A stretch of DNA of 46,250 nucleotides, from IMG/VR virus record IMGVR_UViG_2718218453_000004. One strand, 5' to 3'. Below, in pieces: positions 20-14,037 of the stretch. Made by a program: the position numbers and the translations under genes. Within the stretch, counting starts at the first letter, position 1. Each line of letters opens with the position of its first letter. Source of the stretch: a virus. Its lineage: Duplodnaviria > Heunggongvirae > Uroviricota > Caudoviricetes. The notes under the pieces are model-generated. The model had not been told where the DNA came from, ran no database searches, and was given only the letters and a program-made list of their open reading frames with translations.

Positions 20-1315
20 TTAATTTTTCATTGCTTCGTTATGGGGCATGGTTGGGGCAAACTCGCTTAACTGTGTATTTAACAAAGCTACCTGTGCATT
101 ATTGTTTTCAGACATCCATTTTCCGTATACCTGAAATACCATTTGCGCATCTGCATGGCCCATCTGGTTTGCTATAAATGCCGGGTTAGCACCAGCTGTC
201 AGCGACCAGCAGGCATAAGTATGTCTCGACTGATATGATTTTCGATGGCGGAGTCCGGCACGTTTTATCGCTGCGTCCCACATCTGCCTTATTGAGTCAA
301 CGGTAAAATGGTCACCATAATTTTTTACTCTCGCTGACACTTCAGGTTGAAAAACAAAGGTGCATTTTTGTTTTTCTGTTCTGCCATACTCTCTGAGGTG
401 AACATCAATGATATGCTCTTTGCTCAGTCTCGTTAATGTCATCTGACTCCGGAGAGCGTCGATTGCTGGCTTAATAAGATGAATGACCCGATTGGTTCCC
501 GCCTGTGTTTTTGGTACCGTGAAACGGTCTTTTGCTAAATTTCTCCTGATCATCATTGTTCCATTTTTCAGATCTATGTCCTCCCATCCAAGTGCACACA
601 GCTCACCAGGGCGAACGCCAGTATAAACAGAAACACACCATAAATTTTTTGCTTGCTGATTTCTGCACGCATCGATAAGACGGATAAATTCTTCCCGCGA
701 AAGAGGATCCGGAATGGTTCTTGATTCCTTTAATGGCGAGATCCCCTTAAACGGATTATCTGCCAGGTAACCGTTATCAACACCAAACTGGAACACGGCG
801 TTAAGATTTGTCATGTAATTATTTACAGTTACAGCCGATCTCCCTGGTTGTGTAACAATATAGTTACTTTTGGGGATCTGGTATCCAGTCAGTAACTCTT
901 TACGAACCTCCAGTAATTTTTCTTTATTAATCGATGAGGCAAGATTTTTTTCACCGATTATGCTCAGGATATTTTTGATGACGGCACGGTATGTGTTGAG
1001 TGATGTTTTGGCGACTTCAGTTTCTTTCAGTGCCAGAAATTTTTCAGCCAGTTCTTTTATGGTTAAATCTTGTCGGGCCTCACCAAATTTTTCCAGATTG
1101 CGTGAGGAGGGAAACTGTTTTGCATAGTCGAAAACACCAGTTTTTATTGCGTAACAAACAGAGGAGCGTAGTTCACCTGCAACGCGCCTGTTTTTTGCTG
1201 TGTCAGGAACCCCCAGATTTTCCCTGACTCTTACGCCTTTATAAACAAACCAGATACGTAATTTCCCTCCATGGTTTTCCACGCCTGTCGGATATTTCAT
1301 TTCAACTTCTCTCAT
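20..1315 (-). CDS. int: Tyrosine site-specific integrase
   Basis: 431-aa ORF with a C-terminal catalytic region (HTYACW...GHADAQMVFQVYGKW) typical of lambda-family integrases, at the prophage end next to xis. Confidence 0.9.
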   Translation of the reverse strand: MREVEMKYPTGVENHGGKLRIWFVYKGVRVRENLGVPDTAKNRRVAGELRSSVCYAIKTGVFDYAKQFPSSRNLEKFGEARQDLTIKELAEKFLALKETEVAKTSLNTYRAVIKNILSIIGEKNLASSINKEKLLEVRKELLTGYQIPKSNYIVTQPGRSAVTVNNYMTNLNAVFQFGVDNGYLADNPFKGISPLKESRTIPDPLSREEFIRLIDACRNQQAKNLWCVSVYTGVRPGELCALGWEDIDLKNGTMMIRRNLAKDRFTVPKTQAGTNRVIHLIKPAIDALRSQMTLTRLSKEHIIDVHLREYGRTEKQKCTFVFQPEVSARVKNYGDHFTVDSIRQMWDAAIKRAGLRHRKSYQSRHTYACWSLTAGANPAFIANQMGHADAQMVFQVYGKWMSENNNAQVALLNTQLSEFAPTMPHNEAMKN

Positions 1316-1658: not shown

Positions 1659-2492
1659 TTAAGAATCAGCCTGACTCGGGATCAGTTTTTGCCAGATAAC
1701 TGAAACGTATTTTGCCTGGTAACGGGCGTCATCAAGTGCATTATGGCGCTCACCTTCGAATGGAATAGCCGTTCTGGCATCGAAGTCTATGGCTTTCCCC
1801 AGCTCAACGATTGTGCGTACATCGCGATCGTTGTAGTAACGCCACGGGCAGGGGATCCCCTGCCGTTCGTATGAACGGCGCAAAATCGTGTTGTCGAAGT
1901 TGGCTCCATTTCCCCAAACCTGAACAAAAAATTCACCGGAGTTTTCGTCGATAAATTCCCGCAATTGTAACAGTGCATCATCTAACGGGATTTCATCGGT
2001 CATAATGGCAGATTGCGCTTCGCGTGATTGCTTAAGCCACCATTTAATGGTGTCCCGATCAATGACTCCGCCAGCAGTTTCCAGATCGATAGTCTTACTA
2101 AATTCCGGTCCCATATCTCCGGTTTGCGGATCGAAAAATATTGCACCTATTGAGATGATCGGGGCATCAGGATTTTTTCCCATGGTTTCAAGGTCGATCA
2201 TTAGATGGTCACACGCCCTGCTGGTGGATGTGATTTCGTGATGACCGTTCACCTTAATTGGGTGATCTGCCGTCTCGCCAGTTTCATTATCGCTATTGTG
2301 ATGCTGATTGCCGCCAGTGTTCTCCTTGTGTGGATGTTCAGCGCCTTGCATTTCCTCCGGATCATCTTCCTGAACTTCAACCTGATACTCTTCATCGAAT
2401 GTTTCCTGGTATGTTGCGTCGCCCATCACCGCGCCACAATCAGGGCAGTTGCCGCCGCCGGTCTGACCGCAGGCGGTGCAGACTTTTTCCAC
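1659..2492 (-). CDS. 3'-5' exonuclease (DEDDh/DnaQ-like) with N-terminal zinc ribbon
   Basis: N-terminal CxxC...CPDC, acidic linker, then exonuclease motifs DLETMG (Exo I) and HNALDDA (Exo III, DEDDh type). Confidence 0.75.
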
Positions 2493-2503
2493 TTCCTGTT
2501 GCG

Positions 2504-4093
2504 CTACTGGTTCAGGCTGTTTTGTTCCGCTTTTTGGTAGTTCCGTTCCGATTCATGCTGGTTCTGGTTCACAGAATCGCGGGTCTGGATCCCCTTAACC
2601 CATTTCGGATCATTCGGGTCACTAATCCCTTCAACAAATTCACCACGTGATGCAGCAAGCAACTTATCAGCGTCAGGCTGGCTGATATTGGCTGCCTGCA
2701 TAATTTTGTTTACTTCGTCAGCGGTAACTTTTATCGGCTCTGGTTGTTCTGAATCTTCAGCGGTATCTACATTTTGCGGTAAGCCCGTGTATGTGCCATT
2801 TTTTCGGGCAAAATATTCTTCTTTTGTGATTTCAGTGGCGCCAGCAGCCAGTGCCTTATCCAGACCAGAAAGTTTGTTTGCGCGACCGTATTTTTCTCCG
2901 TCCTTATCTGCGAAGAGGAAATAGAACGGCCCCTCACGCTCTACAGATGGTTCAGCTTCCGGCGCGGTTTCATTTTTTGGGATATCAGATACCTCAGTTT
3001 CCACTGCATCAGTTTGTGTTTCTGATGACTGGAGAACATCAACAGTGCCCAGGTCTGTTTCTTCATTCTCAAACACGCCCTTTGTCGTCAGGTATTCGCA
3101 GATATATTTGTTCAGTGCTACGGGATCTTTGTGAATGTCGATCGGACGCTCACGGACAAGGCCAAAAATAGTCTGGCGGTCGTAGCGAAGGGCATCAGGC
3201 TGTTTGCGCATTGATGCCGAGATACGCTTCCAGTCTTCGCGGTCGTTGTCGATAACTTCTTTTTTTGCCCAGCGATGGATGCTGCCGTCAATGTTTCCGG
3301 CATCCACATCACCAGGCCAGAGAGCGTAGGCCAGTTCGTCATCCAGTGTTTTCCATGTCTGCTTGTATTCGCGATGAATGGCAGCAATGACCGGGCTGAT
3401 TTTTCCTGTTGAATTTTCAGTGTACTGTTGATTGGCTCTGGCGCGTGCGAGATCAACAACAGACGTGTATTTTCCGGTTTCCTTGCGTTCACCTTCGCGA
3501 CGTTTTTTCCAGATGCGCATCTCTGCCTGAATTTCGGGCCATTTAGCACCAGGAATACATTTATGCTTAACCCACCCAATGGCGTGCAACTTAAGCTCCG
3601 GATACATGGCGTTAACTTCTGGCATTTTCATCAACGCTTCAACGATATGTCCGTCGAATGTTGCCATGTCTTCCTGCAACAATTCCTGTGCGCTAATAAC
3701 CATATCAACGGTGATGTTTTCACATGTGTCGAACTTAACCATGACAGCGTTCTGTACTTCAGGGGCCAGCTTGTCAAAAGTGACGTTCATCGGATCGGAT
3801 TCAGTCTCATTCGGGACAAAAGAAGCAGACTCCTCATCCCAGCGGTTTTCCTGCATATATTCAGCATCCCATGAATCGAGGGCAGGGCGGGGTATGCCAG
3901 GTTTATCCTCGCAGACAATAAATTTATAAGCGCAGTCCTGAGCAGCCGGATAATGTTCCAGGAATTGCCAGTGAAATTTTGCTCGAGCACGGCGTTCGTC
4001 GCCAGCTTCAATGGCTGTGGCTACAGCCACAGCGCCTTCTTCCCTTGTTGCCAGTTCGTCAGGAATAGCGGCGCAAATAAAGACTTTACTCAT
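2504..4093 (-). CDS. Hypothetical early-left protein, 529 aa, acidic
   Basis: Long ORF in the early-left operon between the exonuclease and ydfD. No catalytic motif recognised by eye. May be the intact counterpart of truncated K-12 ydfE (unverified). Confidence 0.6.
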
Positions 4094-5950: not shown

Positions 5951-6358
5951 TTATTTTATTGATTTATTTTTACGCGCTTTAAGCATTTCTTCGAAGAGTT
6001 TGTTGAAGTTTTCTACTCTTGCGCGCATTTCAGACAGCAAGGCTTCCTGCTCGGAAGATGGAAGAGCATCGAATAATTCGATCAATTCTTTGTGGTTGGG
6101 AGTTAGCTCTGTTTCCACATGAAGTTCTTGTGCAGGCACTGGTGCCTTGTCTTCGTCACCAAACATTAGCCATGTAGGTGAGCACTTCAGAGCATCCGCT
6201 AAAGCAAACAATCGTTTTCCGACTGGCTGGGTTTCGTCTCTTTCCCATTGTGAAATTGTGACGTGAGCAACTCCAGCGAGGCGCGCAGCTTCTCGTTGTG
6301 TTAAGCGTAATTCTTTTCGTCGCGCCAGAACTCGCTGGCCTAGGGTTCTTGTATCCAT
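5951..6358 (-). CDS. dicA: cI/DicA-like HTH (XRE family) repressor
   Basis: 135-aa protein with an N-terminal HTH (LRLTQREAARLAGVAHVTISQWE) and a C-terminus (MRARVENFNKLFEEMLKARK) resembling DicA. Divergent from the Cro-like gene. Confidence 0.85.
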   Translation of the reverse strand: MDTRTLGQRVLARRKELRLTQREAARLAGVAHVTISQWERDETQPVGKRLFALADALKCSPTWLMFGDEDKAPVPAQELHVETELTPNHKELIELFDALPSSEQEALLSEMRARVENFNKLFEEMLKARKNKSIK

Positions 6359-6380: not shown

Positions 6381-6425
6381 TTGACTTAGATATCCCGCGC
6401 ACAATAATGTTAGAAAAGTCTAACA
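6381..6425 (+). promoter_or_regulatory. PR-like promoter (TTGACT-18-TAATGT) overlapped by operator palindrome tgttagaaaagtctaaca
   Basis: -35 TTGACT at 6381-6386, -10 TAATGT at about 6405-6410, palindrome at 6408-6425, immediately upstream of the dicC-like start. Confidence 0.5.
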
Positions 6426-6435
6426 AGAGGGGGCT

Positions 6436-6666
6436 TTGATGCTTAAAGTTGACGCAATTACTTTTTTTGGCAGCAAAACAAAGCTTGCCAATGCCGCAGG
6501 AGTGAGACTGGCAAGTGTTGCTGCTTGGGGGATACTGGTTCCTGAAGGTCGCGCGATGCGTCTACAGGAGGCATCTGGCGGGGAGCTTCTGTATGATCCC
6601 AAGGTTTATGACGAATATCGTAAGACGAAGCGGGCGGGGCGGTTGAACAATGAAAATCACTCCTGA
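6436..6666 (+). CDS. dicC: Cro-like regulator DicC (76 aa)
   Basis: MMLKVDAITFFGSKTKLANAAGVRLAS...RAMRLQEASGGELLYDPKVYDEYRKTKRAGRLNNENHS matches DicC as recalled. Confidence 0.85.
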   Translation: MMLKVDAITFFGSKTKLANAAGVRLASVAAWGILVPEGRAMRLQEASGGELLYDPKVYDEYRKTKRAGRLNNENHS

Positions 6667-7171
6667 ACAGGCTCGTGAGGCTCTGGATGCCTGGATATGT
6701 CGACCAGGAATGACACAGGAGCAGGCGACGATATTAATCACTGAAGCATTCTGGGCTTTGAAAGAGCGCCCGAACATCGATGTTCAGCGTGTCACAGATG
6801 AAGGTGGCGCGGTTGATCAGCGAGCGCTTGGCGTTAATCGAGTGAAGATATTCGAACGCTGGAAGGCTATCGACACCAGGGATAAGCGTGAAAAGTTCAC
6901 GGCGCTAGTGCCTGCAATTATGGAGGCTATCCGGATTAATGATTTCAGGTTGTATCGTGAAATTAGTGACGGAAAAAGCATCACGTACATGATCGCCGGG
7001 TTAAACAAAGAATATGGCGATGTGGTGGAGTCCGGACTGCTTTTTGCTGATCCTGCCGTAGTGGATCGTGAAACTGACGAACTTATAGAAAAAGCAATTG
7101 CTTTCAAACTTGCGTATCGACAGCAATACCAACAAAAAGCTGGATGGAATTATGAGCCTTCTTTTTGCTGA
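6650..7171 (+). CDS. Hypothetical protein in the cII position (173 aa)
   Basis: ORF overlapping the dicC stop and preceding the replication initiator. Function not recognisable by eye. Confidence 0.6.
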   Translation: MKITPEQAREALDAWICRPGMTQEQATILITEAFWALKERPNIDVQRVTDEGGAVDQRALGVNRVKIFERWKAIDTRDKREKFTALVPAIMEAIRINDFRLYREISDGKSITYMIAGLNKEYGDVVESGLLFADPAVVDRETDELIEKAIAFKLAYRQQYQQKAGWNYEPSFC

Positions 7172-8129
7172 ACGCCCACTGGTTATAAACACACAGCTTG
7201 CGATGAAGATTGGCTTAAATGAAGCCATTGTGTTGCAGCAGTTGCATTACTGGTTGAGAGATACCAATTCCGGCATGGAATGTGATGGTGTTCGCTGGAT
7301 TTACAACACAACGGAACAATGGTTGGAACAGTTCCCATTCTGGTCAGAGTCAACGTTAAAGCGCGCGTTTGCAAGTCTGAAAACGCTGGGGCTTTTGCGT
7401 TGTGAAAAGCTCAATAAATCAAAGCGCGATATGACCAATTTCTACACGATTAACTATGGGAGCGAGCTTTTAGATGATGGCAAATTGAGCGAATCCATCG
7501 GTTCAAAATGCGCCGCTCCATCAGGTCAAAATGACACGATGGAAGAGGTCAAAATGAAACGCTCCATTGGTTCAAAACGACCCAATGTCATCGGGTCAAA
7601 ATGGCCCGATGATCCTACAGAGAATACAACAGAGAATACAACAGAGATTACTACAGAGAATAAAAACACTTTTCGTCCGGAAGCTTCGCAACCGGACCCG
7701 CAGACGGCTGAACAGGATTTTTTAATCCGGCACCCTGGCGCAGTTGTGTTTAGTGCGAAAAAACGCCAGTGGGGTAGCCAGGAGGATCTGGCGTGTGCGC
7801 AGTGGATATGGGGGCGGATCGTGGGTCTCTACGAACAGGCCGCCAGTGATGATGGCGAGATCATGCGACCAAAAGAGCCTAACTGGACTGTCTGGGCCAA
7901 TGATGTGCGCACAATGCGGATGCTGGATGGCAGAAGCCACAGACAAATTTGTGAAATGTTTGGTCGGGTACAGCGGGATCCATTCTGGGTAAAAAACATC
8001 ATGAGCCCGTCAAAGCTCCGCGAAAAATGGGACGAACTGGTCATCCGCCTGGGGCGTTCACCTGTACAGCGTTGTGTTAATCATATTTCTGAACCGGATA
8101 CAGAAATTCCGCCTGGTTTCAGAGGATAA
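7152..8129 (+). CDS. Phage replication initiator / replisome organiser (O-like), iterons embedded
   Basis: N-terminal winged-helix-like region (LQQLHYWLRDTNSG...LKRAFASLKTLGLL), internal direct DNA repeats, conserved C-terminal region. ATG at 7152 chosen; the ORF is open from 7098. Confidence 0.7.
   Translation: MSLLFAERPLVINTQLAMKIGLNEAIVLQQLHYWLRDTNSGMECDGVRWIYNTTEQWLEQFPFWSESTLKRAFASLKTLGLLRCEKLNKSKRDMTNFYTINYGSELLDDGKLSESIGSKCAAPSGQNDTMEEVKMKRSIGSKRPNVIGSKWPDDPTENTTENTTEITTENKNTFRPEASQPDPQTAEQDFLIRHPGAVVFSAKKRQWGSQEDLACAQWIWGRIVGLYEQAASDDGEIMRPKEPNWTVWANDVRTMRMLDGRSHRQICEMFGRVQRDPFWVKNIMSPSKLREKWDELVIRLGRSPVQRCVNHISEPDTEIPPGFRG
7500..7664 (+). repeat. Iteron-like direct repeats inside the initiator gene (putative ori)
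   Basis: Five GGT(T)CAAAA(T/C)G copies at about 23-bp spacing (7500-7603), then four tandem 12-bp ACAGAGAATACA-like units (7617-7664), then an A-rich stretch. Confidence 0.6.
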
Positions 8130-8169
8130 GTTTTGATTTCAGGTCATGAGGTAATTTTAAGGGGGACTT

Positions 8170-8571
8170 GTGGCAAAAGTTTTTACACAAGAAGAGCGGG
8201 AAAAAATTAAAGGGCAGGTGGTGGAACTCGTGCGCCAGAGCGGTCGTGAGACGTTACGGCAACTGGAAGCTAAAACAGGTGCGACTAGATATCTGATGAG
8301 CGTTCTTGCCAGAGAGCTGGTAGCCAGTGGCGATGTATACAACTCCGGCTACGGGTTATTCCCGTCTGAACAGGCGCGTAAGGACTGGCAAAACGCCCGC
8401 AAAAAACTCTCGAGGGCAAAGGTGAAGAAAACAGCTGTGGTTGATCCGGACGTTATCTGGTCGTTACCTGATGGAGAAATACGTCGCTACGACAGTCGCC
8501 TAAACATAATCTGTCGCGAGTGCCGGATGAGTGAAGTTATGCAGCGCATACTGGCATTTTATCAGGGATAA
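8170..8571 (+). CDS. Hypothetical protein (133 aa)
   Basis: ORF following the replication gene; basic, no motif recognised. Confidence 0.55.
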   Translation: MAKVFTQEEREKIKGQVVELVRQSGRETLRQLEAKTGATRYLMSVLARELVASGDVYNSGYGLFPSEQARKDWQNARKKLSRAKVKKTAVVDPDVIWSLPDGEIRRYDSRLNIICRECRMSEVMQRILAFYQG

Positions 8572-8668
8572 TGTTAGGTATTTTAGACGTTACTAGATTA
8601 AAAAGCATTAGTTCAGGAGTGAATTGACATTCTCATTTTTCATGGCACAGGGTAGATCTGGCGTGGTT

Positions 8669-8692
8669 GTCCGCTTTGTGCCAAAAGCGGAC
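8669..8692. terminator. Hairpin between convergent genes (gtccgcttt-N6-aaagcggac)
   Basis: Perfect 9-bp inverted repeat between the rightward 133-aa gene and the leftward 595-aa gene. No clear U-tract, so terminator function is uncertain. Confidence 0.3.
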
Positions 8693-8789
8693 ATCGAATA
8701 ATTTCAGCAGCACTCAACCTTATTAACCAAATCGCCTCAACTCATATGGACATGCATCCGGAAGTGCCAACTTCGTAAACTTATTCACT

Positions 8790-10577
8790 TTAAGTCTGAG
8801 CCTCACTCTCTTGGCCATAAGTGGCTTGCCAGTATCTCGCCGTAGGGTTCATTAGAATGTGCAATACAAGCCACCATGCAAAAATGCAGGGAGGTTGATT
8901 GTAGTAACCGGCAGGCACATATCCGTGAGCTAGTTGATTTCGTAAATCACCATAGATTTTATCTACCAGTAAGGCCTGAAGATTGCCAATTATGTCTACG
9001 CCGAAAGCTTCAATAATCAGTGGATTATCTAGTAATCCCTTGAGTCCATTTCGCTCTTGCGAACCGTCCCCGTGAAGCTGCGATGGTTCCTCACCTTTAA
9101 TTTTAGCCACATATCTCAGACTATTTTCGAGCTGGGGAATCAACACGTGGCATGCCGTCATAAAATCTCCATTGAAACCGCAAACCATACCCTTGATGAA
9201 AAACTCTTCATGCCCAAACGGGATGAAGGGATGATTGATGAACATATCGCGAAAAAACGCCTCCGAGATTGGATATTTCATTGTGATCTCATCTGTAGCA
9301 GGAATAATTTGCCCAGCTACTGCCAACTCATGGTCGATACGCATTCTCGTCATCATTATGGGCCAAATAACTGCCCCATTTGCATCATCAATCCCCAATC
9401 CTGCGGGTATGCGAGCAAGTGTCATTCCCTCATGATCAATATGTGTTGATCCAAACATCCAAGCTATGCTGTTGGCCTTTTGTTCTATTGCTTGAGCCTT
9501 AAGTCTCTCAATGCTGGTTGGCCGACAGACCAGCATCGCAAGTCTGAAAACCATATCAAACAAATCTCTTCCGACTACCCGACTCTTGGCTTGATGGACA
9601 ATCTCACTAATATCTTGAGGGGGAGACTGAAGGATAGACATCTGGTGACGGGATTCGATTTGGTAATCACGCATTTCTTCATACAGCGCAAGACGTTCTA
9701 TTCGGGTTCCTGGAATATTAGCCAGTGCTTCAATAGCATTCTGCATGCAGGCTGCCGAAATCATACCGCCATCTTGGAATTTTGACTCTTCCAGATGTGT
9801 ATCGGCAAGAAGCCGCCAGAATTCAAACTGTGTATCTCTGTCACAGCACCTATTCGCAATCGGGATTGCGGTTTTACAGGCATCGACGGCAAATGAAAAT
9901 AATTTTTGAGCCAGATAGTTTTTTGTCAGAAACAGGAGTTCCTGGGCAATAAAAGATGGCTCACTCACTTTACAGTCGATATCGAGTTGCAGGAGTCGCA
10001 GCGGATAAGGTGAATCGCCTTGTTCTCTGGTACGTTCATACTCTGCTAGTAGATGTGCCGAAAGCTGATCAAATTCATCCCTGAAATCAGTATGCTTTCG
10101 AAAAAAACAACACAGCCTAAGCGCACGCTCTAGGCGTTCTAAAGCACTAACCCACGTCCCTTGCGATGTCATAATAGCTATACTGGACGCATAATAAGCA
10201 CGGACTGCCAGCAAAGGAAAACGGATTCCACCAATTTTACGAACCCAAAGTGTATCAGCAATACGAGCTTGAAGTTCGGGTAGCTCTATCGTCGGGCAAA
10301 ATTGAGAAAGTACCTCCAGCGACAACCCGTTAATGTCATCCGGAATTGCAGATCTACCTTGGCTGCTTTGAAAGCACGGACCAAATGGTACCTGTGGATT
10401 TTCGGGACGAAAGTGAAAACCGCAAATATGGGTTAGCAGTCTTATCTCCGCTCTTCCATCACCTAGGCTAGAAAGATACTTTGTGATATCAAAGCAGGTA
10501 ACTGGCAGCTTACTCTGGATTAAGGGGGATAAATCAATAGTGTTAAGTTCGTCGAGGCTGATATTAATATCGTCCAT
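8790..10577 (-). CDS. Large accessory protein with C-terminal HEPN-like RNase motif (R-x4-H-x-Y); candidate abortive-infection/defence effector
   Basis: 595-aa ORF on the opposite strand to the surrounding rightward operon. RNQLAHGY near the C-terminus (encoded at 8925..8942) fits the HEPN/HepT-type Rx4-6H motif. Visibly AT-richer than flanking genes (by eye, not computed). Occupies the slot where K-12 Qin has relBE beside hok. Confidence 0.6.
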   Translation of the reverse strand: MDDINISLDELNTIDLSPLIQSKLPVTCFDITKYLSSLGDGRAEIRLLTHICGFHFRPENPQVPFGPCFQSSQGRSAIPDDINGLSLEVLSQFCPTIELPELQARIADTLWVRKIGGIRFPLLAVRAYYASSIAIMTSQGTWVSALERLERALRLCCFFRKHTDFRDEFDQLSAHLLAEYERTREQGDSPYPLRLLQLDIDCKVSEPSFIAQELLFLTKNYLAQKLFSFAVDACKTAIPIANRCCDRDTQFEFWRLLADTHLEESKFQDGGMISAACMQNAIEALANIPGTRIERLALYEEMRDYQIESRHQMSILQSPPQDISEIVHQAKSRVVGRDLFDMVFRLAMLVCRPTSIERLKAQAIEQKANSIAWMFGSTHIDHEGMTLARIPAGLGIDDANGAVIWPIMMTRMRIDHELAVAGQIIPATDEITMKYPISEAFFRDMFINHPFIPFGHEEFFIKGMVCGFNGDFMTACHVLIPQLENSLRYVAKIKGEEPSQLHGDGSQERNGLKGLLDNPLIIEAFGVDIIGNLQALLVDKIYGDLRNQLAHGYVPAGYYNQPPCIFAWWLVLHILMNPTARYWQATYGQESEAQT

Positions 10578-10950
10578 GTCGTCACCTTGATGATTTGTTA
10601 ATGCGGGGGCAACATTAATAAATGTACTTGAGACCGCAATTTGTCGATGGAGCCAACATTTATAACTATGTGCTTCTACCCTCTGAATTTTTACATGTGA
10701 ATTGCTAGCTTGAATAGCTCTATCATTATATACGTGGCACTAAATTATGGCTGTTTTTCGCTCAAAGCGGACTAGAAGGTTAGCTTGTGTCGGACTTTGC
10801 GTATTAAAAGAAGTGCTGGTGGTGACTAGTGGTTGTGCCCCATTTCCACAGAAAAAATCAGAGAAACTATACCCAATAGTTGTATTGAATCACTGACGAG
10901 ACAGCCTCATATTCATCAGGACTGGTCTACGTCCAATACAGGAGGTTGTG

Positions 10951-11040
10951 GTGCTGGTTCTCAAATGTGCGCTGGCTATTACGGCTGTAATGGCGATTTA
11001 TTGTCTTGCTATTGTTCTTATGGATCGCCTTTCTGACTGA
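10951..11040 (+). CDS. Candidate 29-aa hydrophobic peptide (type I toxin-like or leader peptide)
   Basis: AGGAGG at 10940-10945, 5-nt spacer, GTG start. Translation (M)LVLKCALAITAVMAIYCLAIVLMDRLSD is one predicted transmembrane helix with a charged tail. +1 frame relative to the TTG-start 67-aa ORF-track entry. Confidence 0.3.
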   Translation: MLVLKCALAITAVMAIYCLAIVLMDRLSD

Positions 11041-11251
11041 TTTCACATTGGCGAGGTAACGGTAGTTAAGTAGAATGGCTGCGGGTGCTTGAGGCTATCT
11101 GCCTCGGGCATGAACACCAACGGCAGATAGAGAAAAGCCCCAGTTAACATTACGCGTCCTGCAAGACGCTTAACATTAATCTGAGGCCAATTTCATGCTA
11201 GACATATGTAGGTTAGCCTCTTACGTGCCGAAAGGCAAGGAGAAGCAGGCT

Positions 11252-11407
11252 ATGAAGCAGCAAAAGGCGATGTTAATCGCCCTGATCGTCATCTGTTTAA
11301 CCGTCATAGTGACGGCACTGGTAACGAGGAAAGACCTCTGCGAGGTACGAATCCGAACCGGCCAGACGGAGGTCGCTGTCTTCACAGCTTACGAACCTGA
11401 GGAGTAA
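11252..11407 (+). CDS. hokD: Hok/Gef-family type I toxin (51 aa)
   Basis: MKQQKAMLIALIVICLTVIVTALVTRKDLCEVRIRTGQTEVAVFTAYEPEE matches the Hok family and RelF/HokD as recalled. SD AAGGAG upstream. An in-frame upstream ATG (11195) gives the 70-aa ORF-track entry (mok-like). Confidence 0.9.
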   Translation: MKQQKAMLIALIVICLTVIVTALVTRKDLCEVRIRTGQTEVAVFTAYEPEE

Positions 11408-11475
11408 GAAACCCGGCGAGGGAGAAATCCCTCGCCACCTCTGATGTGGCAGGCATCCTCAACGCACCCGCACTT

Positions 11476-11497
11476 AACCCGCTTCGGCGGGTTTTTG
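11476..11497 (+). terminator. Rho-independent terminator downstream of hok
   Basis: aacccgc-ttcg-gcgggtt hairpin followed by a T-run. Confidence 0.7.
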
Positions 11498-11623
11498 TTT
11501 TTATTTTCAACGCGTTTGAAGTTCTGGACGGTGCCGGAATAGAATCAAAAATACTTAAGTAGCGCGCAGGGATAAGAGGGATGGTCCCTTAAAGGGGAGA
11601 GCTAATTATCCGGAAGGATTCTG

Positions 11624-11875
11624 ATGATGAACATCGAAGAATTGCGTAAAATTTTTTGTGAAGATGGCCTCTATGCTGTGTGCGTTGAAAATGGAAATCT
11701 TGTTAGTCATTACCGCATTATGTGTTTGCGAAAGAATGGGGCTGCGTTAATTAATTTTGTGGATGGTCGAGTGACAGACGGATTTATCTTGCGCGAAGGT
11801 GAGTTTGTCACTTCATTACAGGCACTGAAAGAGATCGGAATAAAAGCAGGCTTTTTAGCTTTTGCAGAAGAATAA
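11624..11875 (+). CDS. rem: Rem-like small protein (83 aa)
   Basis: 83-aa ORF directly after hok, the position and size of Qin rem. Confidence 0.6.
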   Translation: MMNIEELRKIFCEDGLYAVCVENGNLVSHYRIMCLRKNGAALINFVDGRVTDGFILREGEFVTSLQALKEIGIKAGFLAFAEE

Positions 11876-11941
11876 ACTCATCTACAATCTTGCGCGGGGC
11901 TGAACTCCCGCTGAGTAACACCGTGCCACCGGAGAAAACCG

Positions 11942-12220
11942 ATGGCACGCAACGTAAAATATTACAATTCTGATAATTCGCCCGTTCTTGTCTGCACGCA
12001 CGAGCGGTATTCTCACGCATTCAAGTCTGAATGGTTCCAACACCCTCCATGCACTGAAGAGCAGGCTGAATGGATAATTCAGTGTTACCGCAGGCGCGGA
12101 TACGAGGTTAAGAAAGCCCTTAGCCTCGACTACCGTCACTGGATAATCTCAGTCAGATTGCCTTACTCCGAACGCCCACCACGTGCGTCCCGCACTTTCC
12201 AGCAACGGATCTGGAGGTAA
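11942..12220 (+). CDS. Hypothetical protein (92 aa)
   Basis: ORF ending 1 nt before the ydfU-like GTG start; Cys/His-containing. Confidence 0.5.
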   Translation: MARNVKYYNSDNSPVLVCTHERYSHAFKSEWFQHPPCTEEQAEWIIQCYRRRGYEVKKALSLDYRHWIISVRLPYSERPPRASRTFQQRIWR

Positions 12221-12221
12221 C

Positions 12222-13271
12222 GTGCGGGTATTACTTAGACCTGTTCTGGTGCCTGAGCTTGGGCTGGTGGTCCTTAAGCCGGGCCGTGAATCCATACAGA
12301 TATTTCATAATCCTCGAGTGCTGGTGGAACCGGAACCAAAAAGCATGCGTAATCTGCCATCCGGAGTCGTTCCTGCCGTTCGCCAGTCGCTGGCGGAAGA
12401 CAAAACATTGCTGCCGTTTTTTAGTAACGAACGGGTGATTCGTGCTGCTGGCGGTGTTGGCGCATTGTCTGACTGGCTATTACGTCATGTTACATCCTGC
12501 CAGTGGCCTAATGGCGATTACCATCACTCTGAAACAGTCATTCACCGTTATGGTACCGGCGCAATGGTGTTGTGTTGGCACTGCGACAACCAACTGCGTG
12601 ACCAGACATCGGAATCACTGGAGCTGCTTGCTCAACAAAATCTGACAGCATGGGTGATTGACGTCATCCGTCACGCAATAAGCGGTACGCAGGAGCGGGA
12701 ATTATCTTTGGCTGAATTATCCTGGTGGGCGGTCTGCAATCAGGTGGTGGATGCACTACCTGAGGCTGTATCGCGTCGTTCGCTGGGATTACCAGCGGAA
12801 AAAATCTGCTCGGTGTACCGCGAAAGCGACATCGTACCGGGAGAGCAGACCGCCACCAGCATATTGAAACAACGCACAAAAAATCTTGCACCGTTGCCTT
12901 ACGCCCACCAGCAACAAAAAACACCACAGGAAAAGACGGTGGTAAGCATCACCGTTGATCCAGAGTCTCCGGAATCTTTCATGAAGCTGCCTAAACGTCG
13001 CCGCTGGGTTAAGGAGAAATACACACGTTGGGTTAAGACACAGCCGTGTGCTTGCTGCGGTATGCCAGCCGACGATCCGCATCATCTGATTGGTCACGGG
13101 CAGGGCGGAATGGGAACAAAAGCACATGATCTCTTTGTGTTGCCTTTGTGCAGAAAGCATCACAACGAGCTGCATACGGATACAGTGGCATTTGAAGAGA
13201 AGTATGGCTCCCAACTGGAGCTGATATTTCGTTTTATCGATCGCGCGCTGGCAATTGGCGTACTGGCGTAA
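12222..13271 (+). CDS. ydfU: YdfU-like DUF968 protein with C-terminal HNH-like motif (349 aa from GTG)
   Basis: C-terminus CACCGMPADDPHHLIGHGQGG...CRKHHNELH is HNH-like. GTG at 12222 with a GAGGT SD gives 349 aa; the ATG at 12183 is the alternative start. Confidence 0.75.
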   Translation: MRVLLRPVLVPELGLVVLKPGRESIQIFHNPRVLVEPEPKSMRNLPSGVVPAVRQSLAEDKTLLPFFSNERVIRAAGGVGALSDWLLRHVTSCQWPNGDYHHSETVIHRYGTGAMVLCWHCDNQLRDQTSESLELLAQQNLTAWVIDVIRHAISGTQERELSLAELSWWAVCNQVVDALPEAVSRRSLGLPAEKICSVYRESDIVPGEQTATSILKQRTKNLAPLPYAHQQQKTPQEKTVVSITVDPESPESFMKLPKRRRWVKEKYTRWVKTQPCACCGMPADDPHHLIGHGQGGMGTKAHDLFVLPLCRKHHNELHTDTVAFEEKYGSQLELIFRFIDRALAIGVLA

Positions 13272-13284
13272 GTGGAGAACGAGC

Positions 13285-14037
13285 ATGAACCTTGAAGCCT
13301 TACCAAAATATTACTCCCCAAAATCTCCAAAATTGAGCGATGACGCTCCAGCGACAGGCACCGGTTGTTTAACAATTACGGATGTAATGGCAGCGCAGGG
13401 GATGGTGCAGTCGAAAGCACCACTTGGGTTGGCCTTATTTCTGGCAAAAGTTGGTGTTCAGGACGCTCAGTTTGCGATTGAAGGCCTGCTAAATTACGCG
13501 ATGGCACTGGATAACCCGACATTGAACAAATTGAGTGAAGAAATCCGGTTACAGATTATTCCTTACCTCGTGAATTTTGCCTTTGCTGATTACTCCAGGT
13601 CTGCGGCAAGTAAGGCTCGCTGTGAGCATTGTTCAGGTACGGGATTTTATAATGTATTGCGCGAAGTGGTGAAACACTACAGACGCGGGGAATCTGTAAT
13701 CAAGGAAGAATGGGTGAAGGAACTATGTCAGCATTGCCATGGTAAGGGCGAAGTCAGCACAGCGTGCAGAGGGTGTAAGGGTAAAGGGATTGTTCTGGAT
13801 GAAAAAAGAACCCGGTTTCATGGCGTACCGGTATATAAGATTTGTGGGCGTTGTAATGGAAACCGGTTTAGTCGTTTACCGACCACGCTGGCACGACGTC
13901 ATGTCCAGAAGCTGGTACCAGACCTGACCGATTATCAGTGGTATAAGGGGTATGCGGACGTCATTGGTAAACTGGTAACAAAGTGCTGGCAGGAAGAAGC
14001 ATACGCGGAAGCGCAATTGAGGAAGGTGACGAGATAA
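13285..14037 (+). CDS. quuQ: Late-gene antiterminator Q (250 aa)
   Basis: Cys-rich zinc-binding region (CEHCSGTG...CQHCHGKG...CRGCKGKG...CGRCNG) typical of phage-82/Qin-type Q proteins, followed by a PR'/tR'-like unit. Confidence 0.85.

Follow-up and report, generated by a model that had tools for sequence, protein, structure and literature searches.

What does it mean when the gene for a phage replication initiator carries two different sets of repeats in the middle of its own coding sequence, and might these repeats be the place where replication begins? The question is raised by the IMG/VR record IMGVR_UViG_2718218453_000004, a 46,250-nucleotide stretch of DNA (hereafter, the window), which is a lambdoid (Rac/mEp460-like) prophage with a cI-cro-cII-O module. 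That an initiator gene should contain the origin is textbook knowledge from lambda, and such a location is not surprising in itself; the replicon is of the lambda type and the initiator family is uncurated. A first-pass annotation made from the letters alone had described five copies of a repeat at about 23 bp, four 12-bp units and an A-rich tract inside this gene. A repeat search, Tandem Repeats Finder (TRF) and the open reading frame (ORF) lists agree with that description, with the small correction that the repeat-bearing gene starts at 7152. We consider it quite probable, judging from sequence comparison, that positions 7473-7697 are the replication origin of this prophage, written into the linker-coding part of the initiator gene. 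In its general form, as a lambda-type in-gene origin, the assignment appears well supported by the comparative evidence.

The gene was earlier taken to encode a replication initiator, and this is borne out by the match of its product to PHROG 391, 'replication initiation O-like' (E 2.6e-92), and by the similarity of residues 166-298 to residues 150-270 of lambda O (36% identity over 133 aa, E 3e-26, BLASTP). In the AlphaFold2 model (mean predicted local distance difference test score 56), a winged-helix domain (residues 10-105) is followed by a disordered segment (109-179), a helical C-domain (186-300) and a disordered tail (301-325). The disordered segment 109-179 covers exactly the repeats. 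In other words, the initiator ORF holds all the iterons and 12-bp units (7473-7664), in the stretch that encodes the linker between the two domains.

The first set consists of five copies of a 23-nt direct repeat, which start at 7496, 7519, 7542, 7565 and 7589 and are thus spaced by 23, 23, 23 and 24 bp (Table 1). Their core, G(G/T)TCAAAA(T/C)G, is present five times in 7501-7603, whereas the entire 46-kb window would be expected to hold 0.71 occurrences; in 100 shuffles, a count of six was never reached. The original count of five is right for the clear copies, but it becomes six if the degenerate copy at 7473 (iteron 0) is included; relatives have GGTCAAAGTG at the position of iteron 0, with GAGGTCAAAGTGA in mEp460_4F5 and Klebsiella phages. 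Partial dyad symmetry is seen in each copy, for example in CATCGGGTCAAAATGGCCCGATG, and iterons 1 and 3 are poor palindromes. In the window, three copies of TCAAAA(T/C)G encode SK(C/R/W), one encodes QND and one KMK, so that the motif is read in all three frames (IGSK/GQND/VKMK); these peptide read-outs, as well as TENTTENTTEITTEN from the 12-bp units, are just as first described. Since the 23-bp period is not a multiple of three and all three frames are used, selection acts on the DNA.

The distribution of the repeats beyond the window was investigated using homologues of the N-terminal 106 residues. These were taken from phage records (L002-L012) and from one genome per species (L013-L092), yielding 88 non-identical loci from Enterobacterales, Pseudomonas, Campylobacterales, Bacillus, Staphylococcus, Lactobacillaceae, Thermomicrobiales and other taxa. 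Most of the loci have an array of 2-6 repeats beginning ~14 nt 3' of the part coding for the N-domain. The modal spacing is 23 bp (23 bp in 90 cases, 22 bp in 15, 24 bp in 21 and 46 bp in 33), and the iteron centres are evenly spread over the codon phases (99/83/77). The centre, CAAA(A/T)TG, is constant across the family, while the arms vary by lineage and change jointly on both sides (GGT..ACC, GGG..CCC, GGA..TCC, GAT..ATC, TAT..ATA, ACC..GGT), the lineage forms being GGTCAAAATGACC, GGGCAAATTGCCC, GGACAAAATGxCC, GATCAAAATGATC, GTATCAAAATGATAC and GACCCAAAATGGGTC. Covarying arms around a constant centre are the pattern that would be expected of sites for a dimeric protein encoded alongside. 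The comparison with related ori regions, proposed in the first-pass annotation as a check, thus finds the 23-bp repeats kept as DNA, at the same position and spacing, with lineage-specific arms. Relative to mEp460_4F5 and Kp4882-3, identity is 83% over the iteron array but 74-76% over the part coding for the N-domain, even though the array encodes a disordered linker. In the Klebsiella phage Kp4882-3, similarity falls to 51-56% just 3' of the 12-mer tract, where a different C-terminal domain begins. Because the drop comes right after this tract, the N-domain, the iterons and the 12-mers travel as one module.

Every unit is an imperfect inverted repeat and its arms covary, so the 23-mers might also be viewed as mRNA hairpins that control translation or stability of the initiator message. 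We find this extremely improbable. The poor palindromes of iterons 1 and 3 would be tolerable for a cooperative DNA-binding protein but not for hairpins, and a search of Rfam gave no match at E<=1 in 6900-8300. Moreover, nothing about an RNA would obviously call for the strict 23-bp phasing or the A-tract centre, and the precedents in lambda and in RepA_N replicons are DNA sites.

The second set of repeats follows the iterons. At 7617-7662, TRF reports a period of 12 with 3.8 copies and 91% matches (consensus ACAGAGAATACA). The GC content at 7625-7674 is 30% and the AT skew is +0.43. The least stable 40-bp duplex of the initiator gene is found here (7633-7673), and only 1.6% of the 40-bp stretches in the 46 kb are less stable. 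Since the 12-mer tract coincides with this duplex, it corresponds to the AT-rich unwinding region of lambda. The four 12-mer copies noted earlier are indeed present in the window, but they are atypical: of 85 close relatives, 81 carry three units, and four units are confined to two of them, the window and L013, whose origin region is identical. Given that 81 of the 85 have three, the fourth unit is a recent slippage duplication.

Unlike the arms of the iterons, the unit does not change between lineages: ACAGAGAnTAC follows the iterons in relatives with differing arms, from Enterobacterales such as E. coli to Bacillus and Staphylococcus. The strict form CAGAGAnT[AT] is found within <=300 bp after the N-domain at 68 of the 88 loci, with a density of 6.6/kb versus 0.031/kb in the flanks. 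The interval between units is 12 bp in 97 of 107 cases, and the first unit lies 18-21 nt past the centre of the last iteron in 42 of 64 loci. Iterons and units occur together at 63 loci, neither is found at 13 and only one of them at 12 (p 3.5e-7). In some members from Firmicutes and Campylobacterales, the first two units are 10-11 bp apart and hence are read in two frames. For the analysis of codon choice, units were defined by their peptide and compared with the rest of the same genes (Fisher). Threonine is encoded by ACA in 126 of 129 cases in units as opposed to 200 of 923 elsewhere (p 2e-68), and glutamate by GAG in 152 of 173 as opposed to 519 of 1137 (p 1.6e-27). The middle base of codon 3 of the unit, a non-synonymous position, is free (A52, C49, G9, T63), and the T after it is fixed. 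Thus, synonymous sites are frozen beside a free replacement site, which indicates that the 12-mer is under selection on DNA.

These results bear on the possibility that the repeats have no function as DNA and are either by-products of slippage in a disordered linker or selected as peptide. The linker encoded here is disordered, the number of 12-bp copies varies (three or four) and natural in-frame deletions between iterons do exist. However, a period of 23 bp that is not a multiple of three, a motif occurring in all three frames, arms that change jointly, and synonymous positions that are frozen next to a free non-synonymous one already contradict this explanation, making it very improbable.

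A stronger alternative is that both sets are duplex binding sites, the 12-bp units being a second class of iterons bound by the initiator or by a host factor, with no role in unwinding. The units are tandem and regular (12 bp in nearly all intervals), are selected at the DNA level and keep their register to the last iteron, and their conserved sequence argues for specific recognition. Nonetheless, we find this alternative unlikely. The unit stays constant where the iteron arms differ and so does not track the specificity of the initiator; the hosts span E. coli to Staphylococcus, which makes a shared duplex-binding host factor unlikely; and a 12-bp period is too short for dimeric winged-helix sites like the 23-bp iterons. 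In addition, the tract is the least stable duplex and is A/purine-skewed on one strand, like the unwinding region of lambda. The earlier description of the 12-bp units as a second iteron family is therefore abandoned, its place being taken by a DNA element that is conserved family-wide and is presumed to be the unwinding region.

The layout had also been said to mirror ori-lambda, and it does: repeats, A-rich tract and short palindrome come in the lambda order. In both cases, the origin (a probable one in the window) lies within the initiator gene at the junction of the N- and C-domains and has 4-6 imperfect palindromic iterons ~20-24 bp apart with an A-tract centre (ATCCCTCAAAACGAGGGA in lambda, CATCGGGTCAAAATGGCCCGATG in the window). 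These are followed by an A-rich meltable tract, a short palindrome (GTCAGAGAATTCTGGCGAATCCTCTGAC in lambda, GTCCGGAAGCTTCGCAACCGGAC in the window) and then the O-like C-domain. In lambda itself, four iterons ATCCCTCAAAACGAGGGA with spacings of 20, 24 and 23 bp precede CACAAAAGACACTATTACAAAAGAAAAAAGAAAAGATTATTC and then the palindrome GTCAGAGAATTCTGGCGAATCCTCTGAC. The cI-cro-cII-O context, the Ren-like gene downstream and the homologous C-domain are likewise shared. On the other hand, the window has an N-domain other than Phage_rep_O, different iteron arms and, as its post-iteron unit, tandem 12-mers of ACAGAGAnTAC; its initiator has a DnaT-like tail, and no P, DnaC or DnaB gene follows. The suggestion that differing repeats imply a distinct initiator specificity consequently applies to the arms but not to the TCAAAAYG A-tract centre, which is shared with lambda.

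The ori/O pairs of 933W, P22/HK97 and phi80-type phages belong with that of lambda among the closest known systems. Probing viral contigs with the lambda O N-domain yielded nothing but 100% identical copies and hence no diversity; seven divergent phages of the lambda O family were used instead. In the eight divergent lambda-O-type origins (L173, L255-L261), the iteron arms differ as well. Seven of the eight have AAAGACAnTA directly behind the last iteron, once or twice (in L173 at 1119-1165); the pair in BTP1 and HK97 is spaced by 14 bp and hence occupies different frames. AAAGACAnTA resembles the unit of the window, the consensus common to both being AGA[CG]AnTA. The lambda unit can be related to genetic data. 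The cis-acting lambda ori- mutations r99 (which deletes CACAAAAGACAC), r95 (which deletes AAAAGACACTAT) and ti12 (39122 C to A) have been described, and O proteins with r95, r96 or ti12 still complement in trans (PMC6022878). The coordinates of r99, r95 and ti12 map onto the first post-iteron unit of lambda. These mutations are a direct precedent for a short conserved post-iteron unit acting as DNA.

Several other systems show parts of the same arrangement. In lambda, the O protein binds the AT-rich region in single-stranded form (PMC7466680), and plasmid Rep proteins bind one strand of the unwinding element (PMC4081077, PMC10602881). Short tandem units beside duplex sites are also typical of the oriC 13-mers, DnaA-trios, the 13-mers in the DNA unwinding element (DUE) of RK2 TrfA and F RepE replicons, and the DnaD recognition element of B. 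subtilis oriC. There too the units sit in the least stable DNA and are conserved in sequence beyond AT content (PMC4081077, PMC10602881, PMC10201434). The window differs from them in the unit sequence, the 12-bp period and the coding location. The 13-mers of the iteron plasmids are bound by Rep as single strands. As for the iterons, those of RepA_N replicons are semi-palindromic direct repeats converging on a poly-A tract (PMC7145576), a description that the repeats of the window and its family, with their arms and CAAAATG centre, fit. The RepA_N initiators in question are those of plasmids of Gram-positive bacteria (RepA of pSK41/pTZ2162) and the RepA of the V. cholerae PLE. Here, the replicon is a phage and not a plasmid, the C-domain is of the lambda O type and the initiator has no sequence-level membership in RepA_N. 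Finally, repeats inside the phage initiator's own gene are a feature of TP901-1 Rep/ori and of SPP1 G38P/oriL. In TP901-1, repeats and then an A-rich tract lie in the middle of rep, which GenBank marks 'replication protein, experimental'. TP901-1 Rep was considered as a studied member of the family and rejected, as its N-domain is unrelated (BLASTP E 0.73), its repeats differ and CAGAGAnTAC is missing. The replication modules of Eru-type Stx phages (PMC8044961) were set aside too: their genes are different and repeats are not discussed there.

No family in Pfam or NCBIfam corresponds to the initiator, and across 84 N-domains only sub-threshold winged-helix matches were obtained. An assignment of the N-domain to Phage_rep_O was rejected, since there is no Pfam/TIGR01610 match (lambda O itself scores 5.4e-39 on TIGR01610) and hhalign of a profile of 84 sequences against lambda O gives a probability of 0.3%. 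Pfam RepA_N (PF06970) is not matched, and DnaD_N is matched only below threshold in 5 of the 84 members (best E 0.017). The best fold matches of the N-domain are N-terminal domains of RepA_N proteins, the closest being staphylococcal RepA_N, with a small margin over generic winged helices. A solved structure of lambda O for a fold comparison does not exist.

The far C-terminus has a different affinity. The 20-residue tail, VNHISEPDTEIPPGFRG, matches the C-terminus of E. coli DnaT, VNTVSEPDSQIPPGFRG, almost perfectly; E-values for this part by itself are 1e-4 to 3e-4, and it aligns with positions 160-179 of the NCBIfam DnaT model. The protein was rejected as a full-length DnaT (NCBIfam NF002770), because only its last 20 residues match, with 16.3 bits against a cut-off of 201 bits. 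On this match, the 'Primosomal protein I' that RAST assigned in LR597641 and LR595868 is an over-annotation brought about by the DnaT-like tail. The IPxGF(R/K)G motif recurs in members from E. coli, Klebsiella and Pantoea, in none of which it is followed by an ORF with a Walker A motif, and the (D/N)Y.IP.GF(R/K)G tail is present even in relatives with a different C-domain. Within the genome set, none of the DnaT-tailed loci is followed by a Walker A ORF versus 16 of the other loci. The tail may represent mimicry of the host primosome; a recent preprimosome paper does not state the role of the DnaT tail (PMC13377028). In the window, the stretch from the initiator gene to Q (8130-14037) contains no helicase or helicase loader gene (P, DnaC or DnaB type), and there is none directly 3' of the initiator gene in mEp460_ev081, mEp460_4F5 and ST147-VIM1phi7.2. 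The window thus contains an initiator-only replication module in the sense of a missing helicase/loader gene.

Based on these data, initiation might proceed as follows. Dimers of the N-terminal winged-helix domain would bind the six 23-bp iterons, which are about two helical turns apart and whose palindromic arms converge on the A-tract centre, and would build a bent nucleoprotein complex similar to the lambda O-some. Stress from this complex, together with transcription from the pR-like promoter, which if functional would cross the origin, would open the adjacent ACAGAGAnTAC tract. The opened tract would then probably be read as single-stranded DNA, as is done by plasmid Rep proteins and DnaA. 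Since hosts and iteron specificities vary while the unit does not, the invariant part of the initiator would be its most plausible reader. Lastly, the lambda-O-like C-domain and the DnaT-like tail would recruit the host helicase-loading machinery, presumably without an intermediary, as a P, DnaC or DnaB gene is missing from the phage. If so, this loader-less arrangement suggests how phage initiators may capture that machinery.

Another explanation is that the repeats are initiator sites that serve regulation alone, be it autoregulation, copy control or the exclusion of related phages, and that replication begins elsewhere in the prophage. Plasmid iterons also serve control, cloned lambda ori fragments are reported to inhibit related phages (PMC3349717, PMC4488673), and some family members have no in-gene repeats. 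We nevertheless regard this explanation as improbable. The full lambda-type grammar of iterons, meltable tract and palindrome is conserved with fixed geometry, and the equivalent elements of lambda are the origin. No other repeat cluster turned up in the early region, although no search was aimed at one.

Several observations weigh against the assignment of the origin or limit it. By the detection rule used, 15 of the 88 members are without iterons and about 11 of these, mostly from Bacillus/Neobacillus, are without 12-mers as well; the in-gene origin is therefore not obligatory for the N-domain. The CAGAGA unit is found in one codon phase, read T-E-x-T, in 165 of 175 cases, so a contribution of the peptide is possible. 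Family-wide statistics ignore shared ancestry and repeat units arise by duplication, hence the p-values overstate independence. What follows opening is speculative, given that the prophage encodes no helicase loader. The recE-like gene upstream is split, which could reflect a frameshift or a stop, and because of this the prophage copy in the window may be partly decayed. Finally, the searchable literature gave no experiment on this replicon or on its N-domain family. We found no description of this origin there either, and one may have been published earlier; a look-up of repeat sequences and peptides (CAGAGATTAC, TEITTE) returned noise only.

A wider proposal goes beyond the window. According to it, ACAGAGAnTAC and the lambda AAAGACAnTA would be an 'opening code' read in single-stranded form by the invariant face of a winged-helix phage initiator. 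In enterobacterial members, the initiator, mimicking the DnaT tail, would need no phage loader and would connect straight to the host primosome or the DnaB-DnaC machinery, and initiators of this type would make up a cross-phylum RepA_N-like 'solo' family. We put this forward as a tentative and rather doubtful possibility. If the opening code were true, it would be the phage counterpart of DnaA-trios and plasmid DUE 13-mers; if the solo family were true, it would be a large, uncurated family with members in roughly a third to a half of complete E. coli genomes. In either case, the frozen ACAGAGAnTAC offers a testable handle on whether an AT-rich region works by low stability only or through sequence-specific recognition.

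The replicon is very common. Of 5426 complete E. coli genomes, 2943 have a match to the initiator gene, 1860 of them over >=80% of the query, and a nearly identical module is found in the phages mEp460_ev081, PhiR42_1 and HannyBb. In a large protein database, there are 4246 relatives at E<=1e-5. In E. coli genomes, the annotation is mostly 'hypothetical protein' or 'phage replication protein O'. Named relatives in the top list are all 'hypothetical protein' except for one fusion call, 'toxin YdaT family protein'; precomputed Pfam assignments are limited to YdaT_toxin in upstream-fusion calls and one other entry. The lack of a Pfam or NCBIfam model is thus a curation gap for a very common prophage replication protein, and a defined origin with its initiator would improve both prophage annotation and the prediction of replication-competent prophages.

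Gene calls in the window were made from ORF lists and PHROG/Pfam scans; the resulting features are collected in Table 1.

Table 1. Positions in the window of the putative origin elements, the initiator gene and its coding segments, and neighbouring genes
Feature	Position	Strand	Basis or remark
Integrase	20-1315	-	ORF and PHROG/Pfam
recE-like exonuclease, two ORFs	1659-4093 (1659-2492 and 2504-4093)	-	PHROG 2082, 823 positions
cI-like repressor	5951-6358	-	ORF and PHROG/Pfam
Candidate pR-like sigma-70 promoter, 5' of cro	6381-6408	+	Consensus scan, 10/12 matches; between cI-like and cro-like genes
cro-like gene	6436-6666	+	ORF and PHROG/Pfam
YdaT/cII-like gene	6650-7171	+	ORF and PHROG/Pfam
O-like initiator gene, 325 aa	7152-8129	+	PHROG 391, lambda O C-half, synteny cI-cro-cII/YdaT-O
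N-terminal winged-helix domain, presumed iteron-binding	7152-7469	+	
Iteron 0, degenerate, GGCAAATTG centre	7473-7495	+	In register 23 bp 5' of iteron 1
Iteron 1, CATCGGTTCAAAATGCGCCGCTC	7496-7518	+	Repeat search, core count
Iteron 2, CATCAGGTCAAAATGACACGATG	7519-7541	+	Repeat search, core count
Iteron 3, GAAGAGGTCAAAATGAAACGCTC	7542-7564	+	Repeat search, core count
Iteron 4, CATTGGTTCAAAACGACCCAATG	7565-7587	+	Repeat search, core count
Iteron 5, CATCGGGTCAAAATGGCCCGATG, best palindrome	7589-7611	+	Inverted repeat, 11-nt arms, 91% complementary
Four 12-bp units, ACAGAGAATACA / ACAGAGAATACA / ACAGAGATTACT / ACAGAGAATAAA	7617-7664	+	TRF, family enrichment, frozen codons
Least stable 40-bp duplex of the initiator gene	7633-7673	.	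Nearest-neighbour dG -45.9 versus window mean -56.4 (standard deviation 4.7)
Short palindrome GTCCGGAAGCTTCGCAACCGGAC	7675-7697	.	Position matches lambda palindrome GTCAGAGAATTCTGGCGAATCCTCTGAC; kept in mEp460 relatives
Lambda-O-like C-terminal helical domain, coding part	7707-8051	+	BLASTP, AlphaFold2
C-terminal tail VNHISEPDTEIPPGFRG, last 20 codons	8067-8126	+	phmmer versus PDB 2ru8, 6aep, 9zbt_D
DUF977/Ren-like gene	8170-8571		Directly downstream of initiator gene
DUF7380 + DUF4209 gene, 595 aa	8790-10577	-	Between Ren-like gene and late regulators

Some further observations concern the origin region and its relatives. Natural initiator variants of 290 aa (P0018-P0023) have an in-frame deletion of 93 bp equivalent to 7496-7588 of the window. 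Its length is the distance from iteron 1 to iteron 5, so that these two are fused and four repeat periods are lost. Such variants are probably origin-crippled prophages, comparable by analogy to the r-type deletions of lambda. A clade from Bacillus/Neobacillus (L056, L058, L060, L061, L064-L066, L076, L084, L090) has the same N-domain in shorter proteins with no iterons or CAGAGAnTAC; replication in this clade may start from a different place, or the proteins may serve some other function. In three contigs assigned to Veillonella parvula, Bacillota and Collinsella metagenome-assembled genomes (L013, L014, L059), the N-domain translation is 100% identical to that of the window, most likely due to contamination during binning. 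GATC is present at 7611-7614, between the last iteron and the first 12-mer (GATGATCCTACAGAGA), and the junction is kept as TCTTACAGAGA in Proteobacteria and as CCAATACCAGAGA in Firmicutes. GATC was rejected as a general feature of the junction, being found in only 23 of 68 loci. A Dam methylase is encoded beside the initiator gene in several relatives. DnaA boxes and IHF sites are absent from 6900-8300 except for one DnaA-box-like site at 8181.

Farther downstream, the DUF7380/DUF4209 gene is followed by an HNH nuclease, the Q antiterminator, and lysis and structural genes. In the slot occupied by this gene, mEp460_ev081 carries a different gene of 449 aa (L001 5897-7246), and the slot looks like a position for variable cargo, possibly related to defence.

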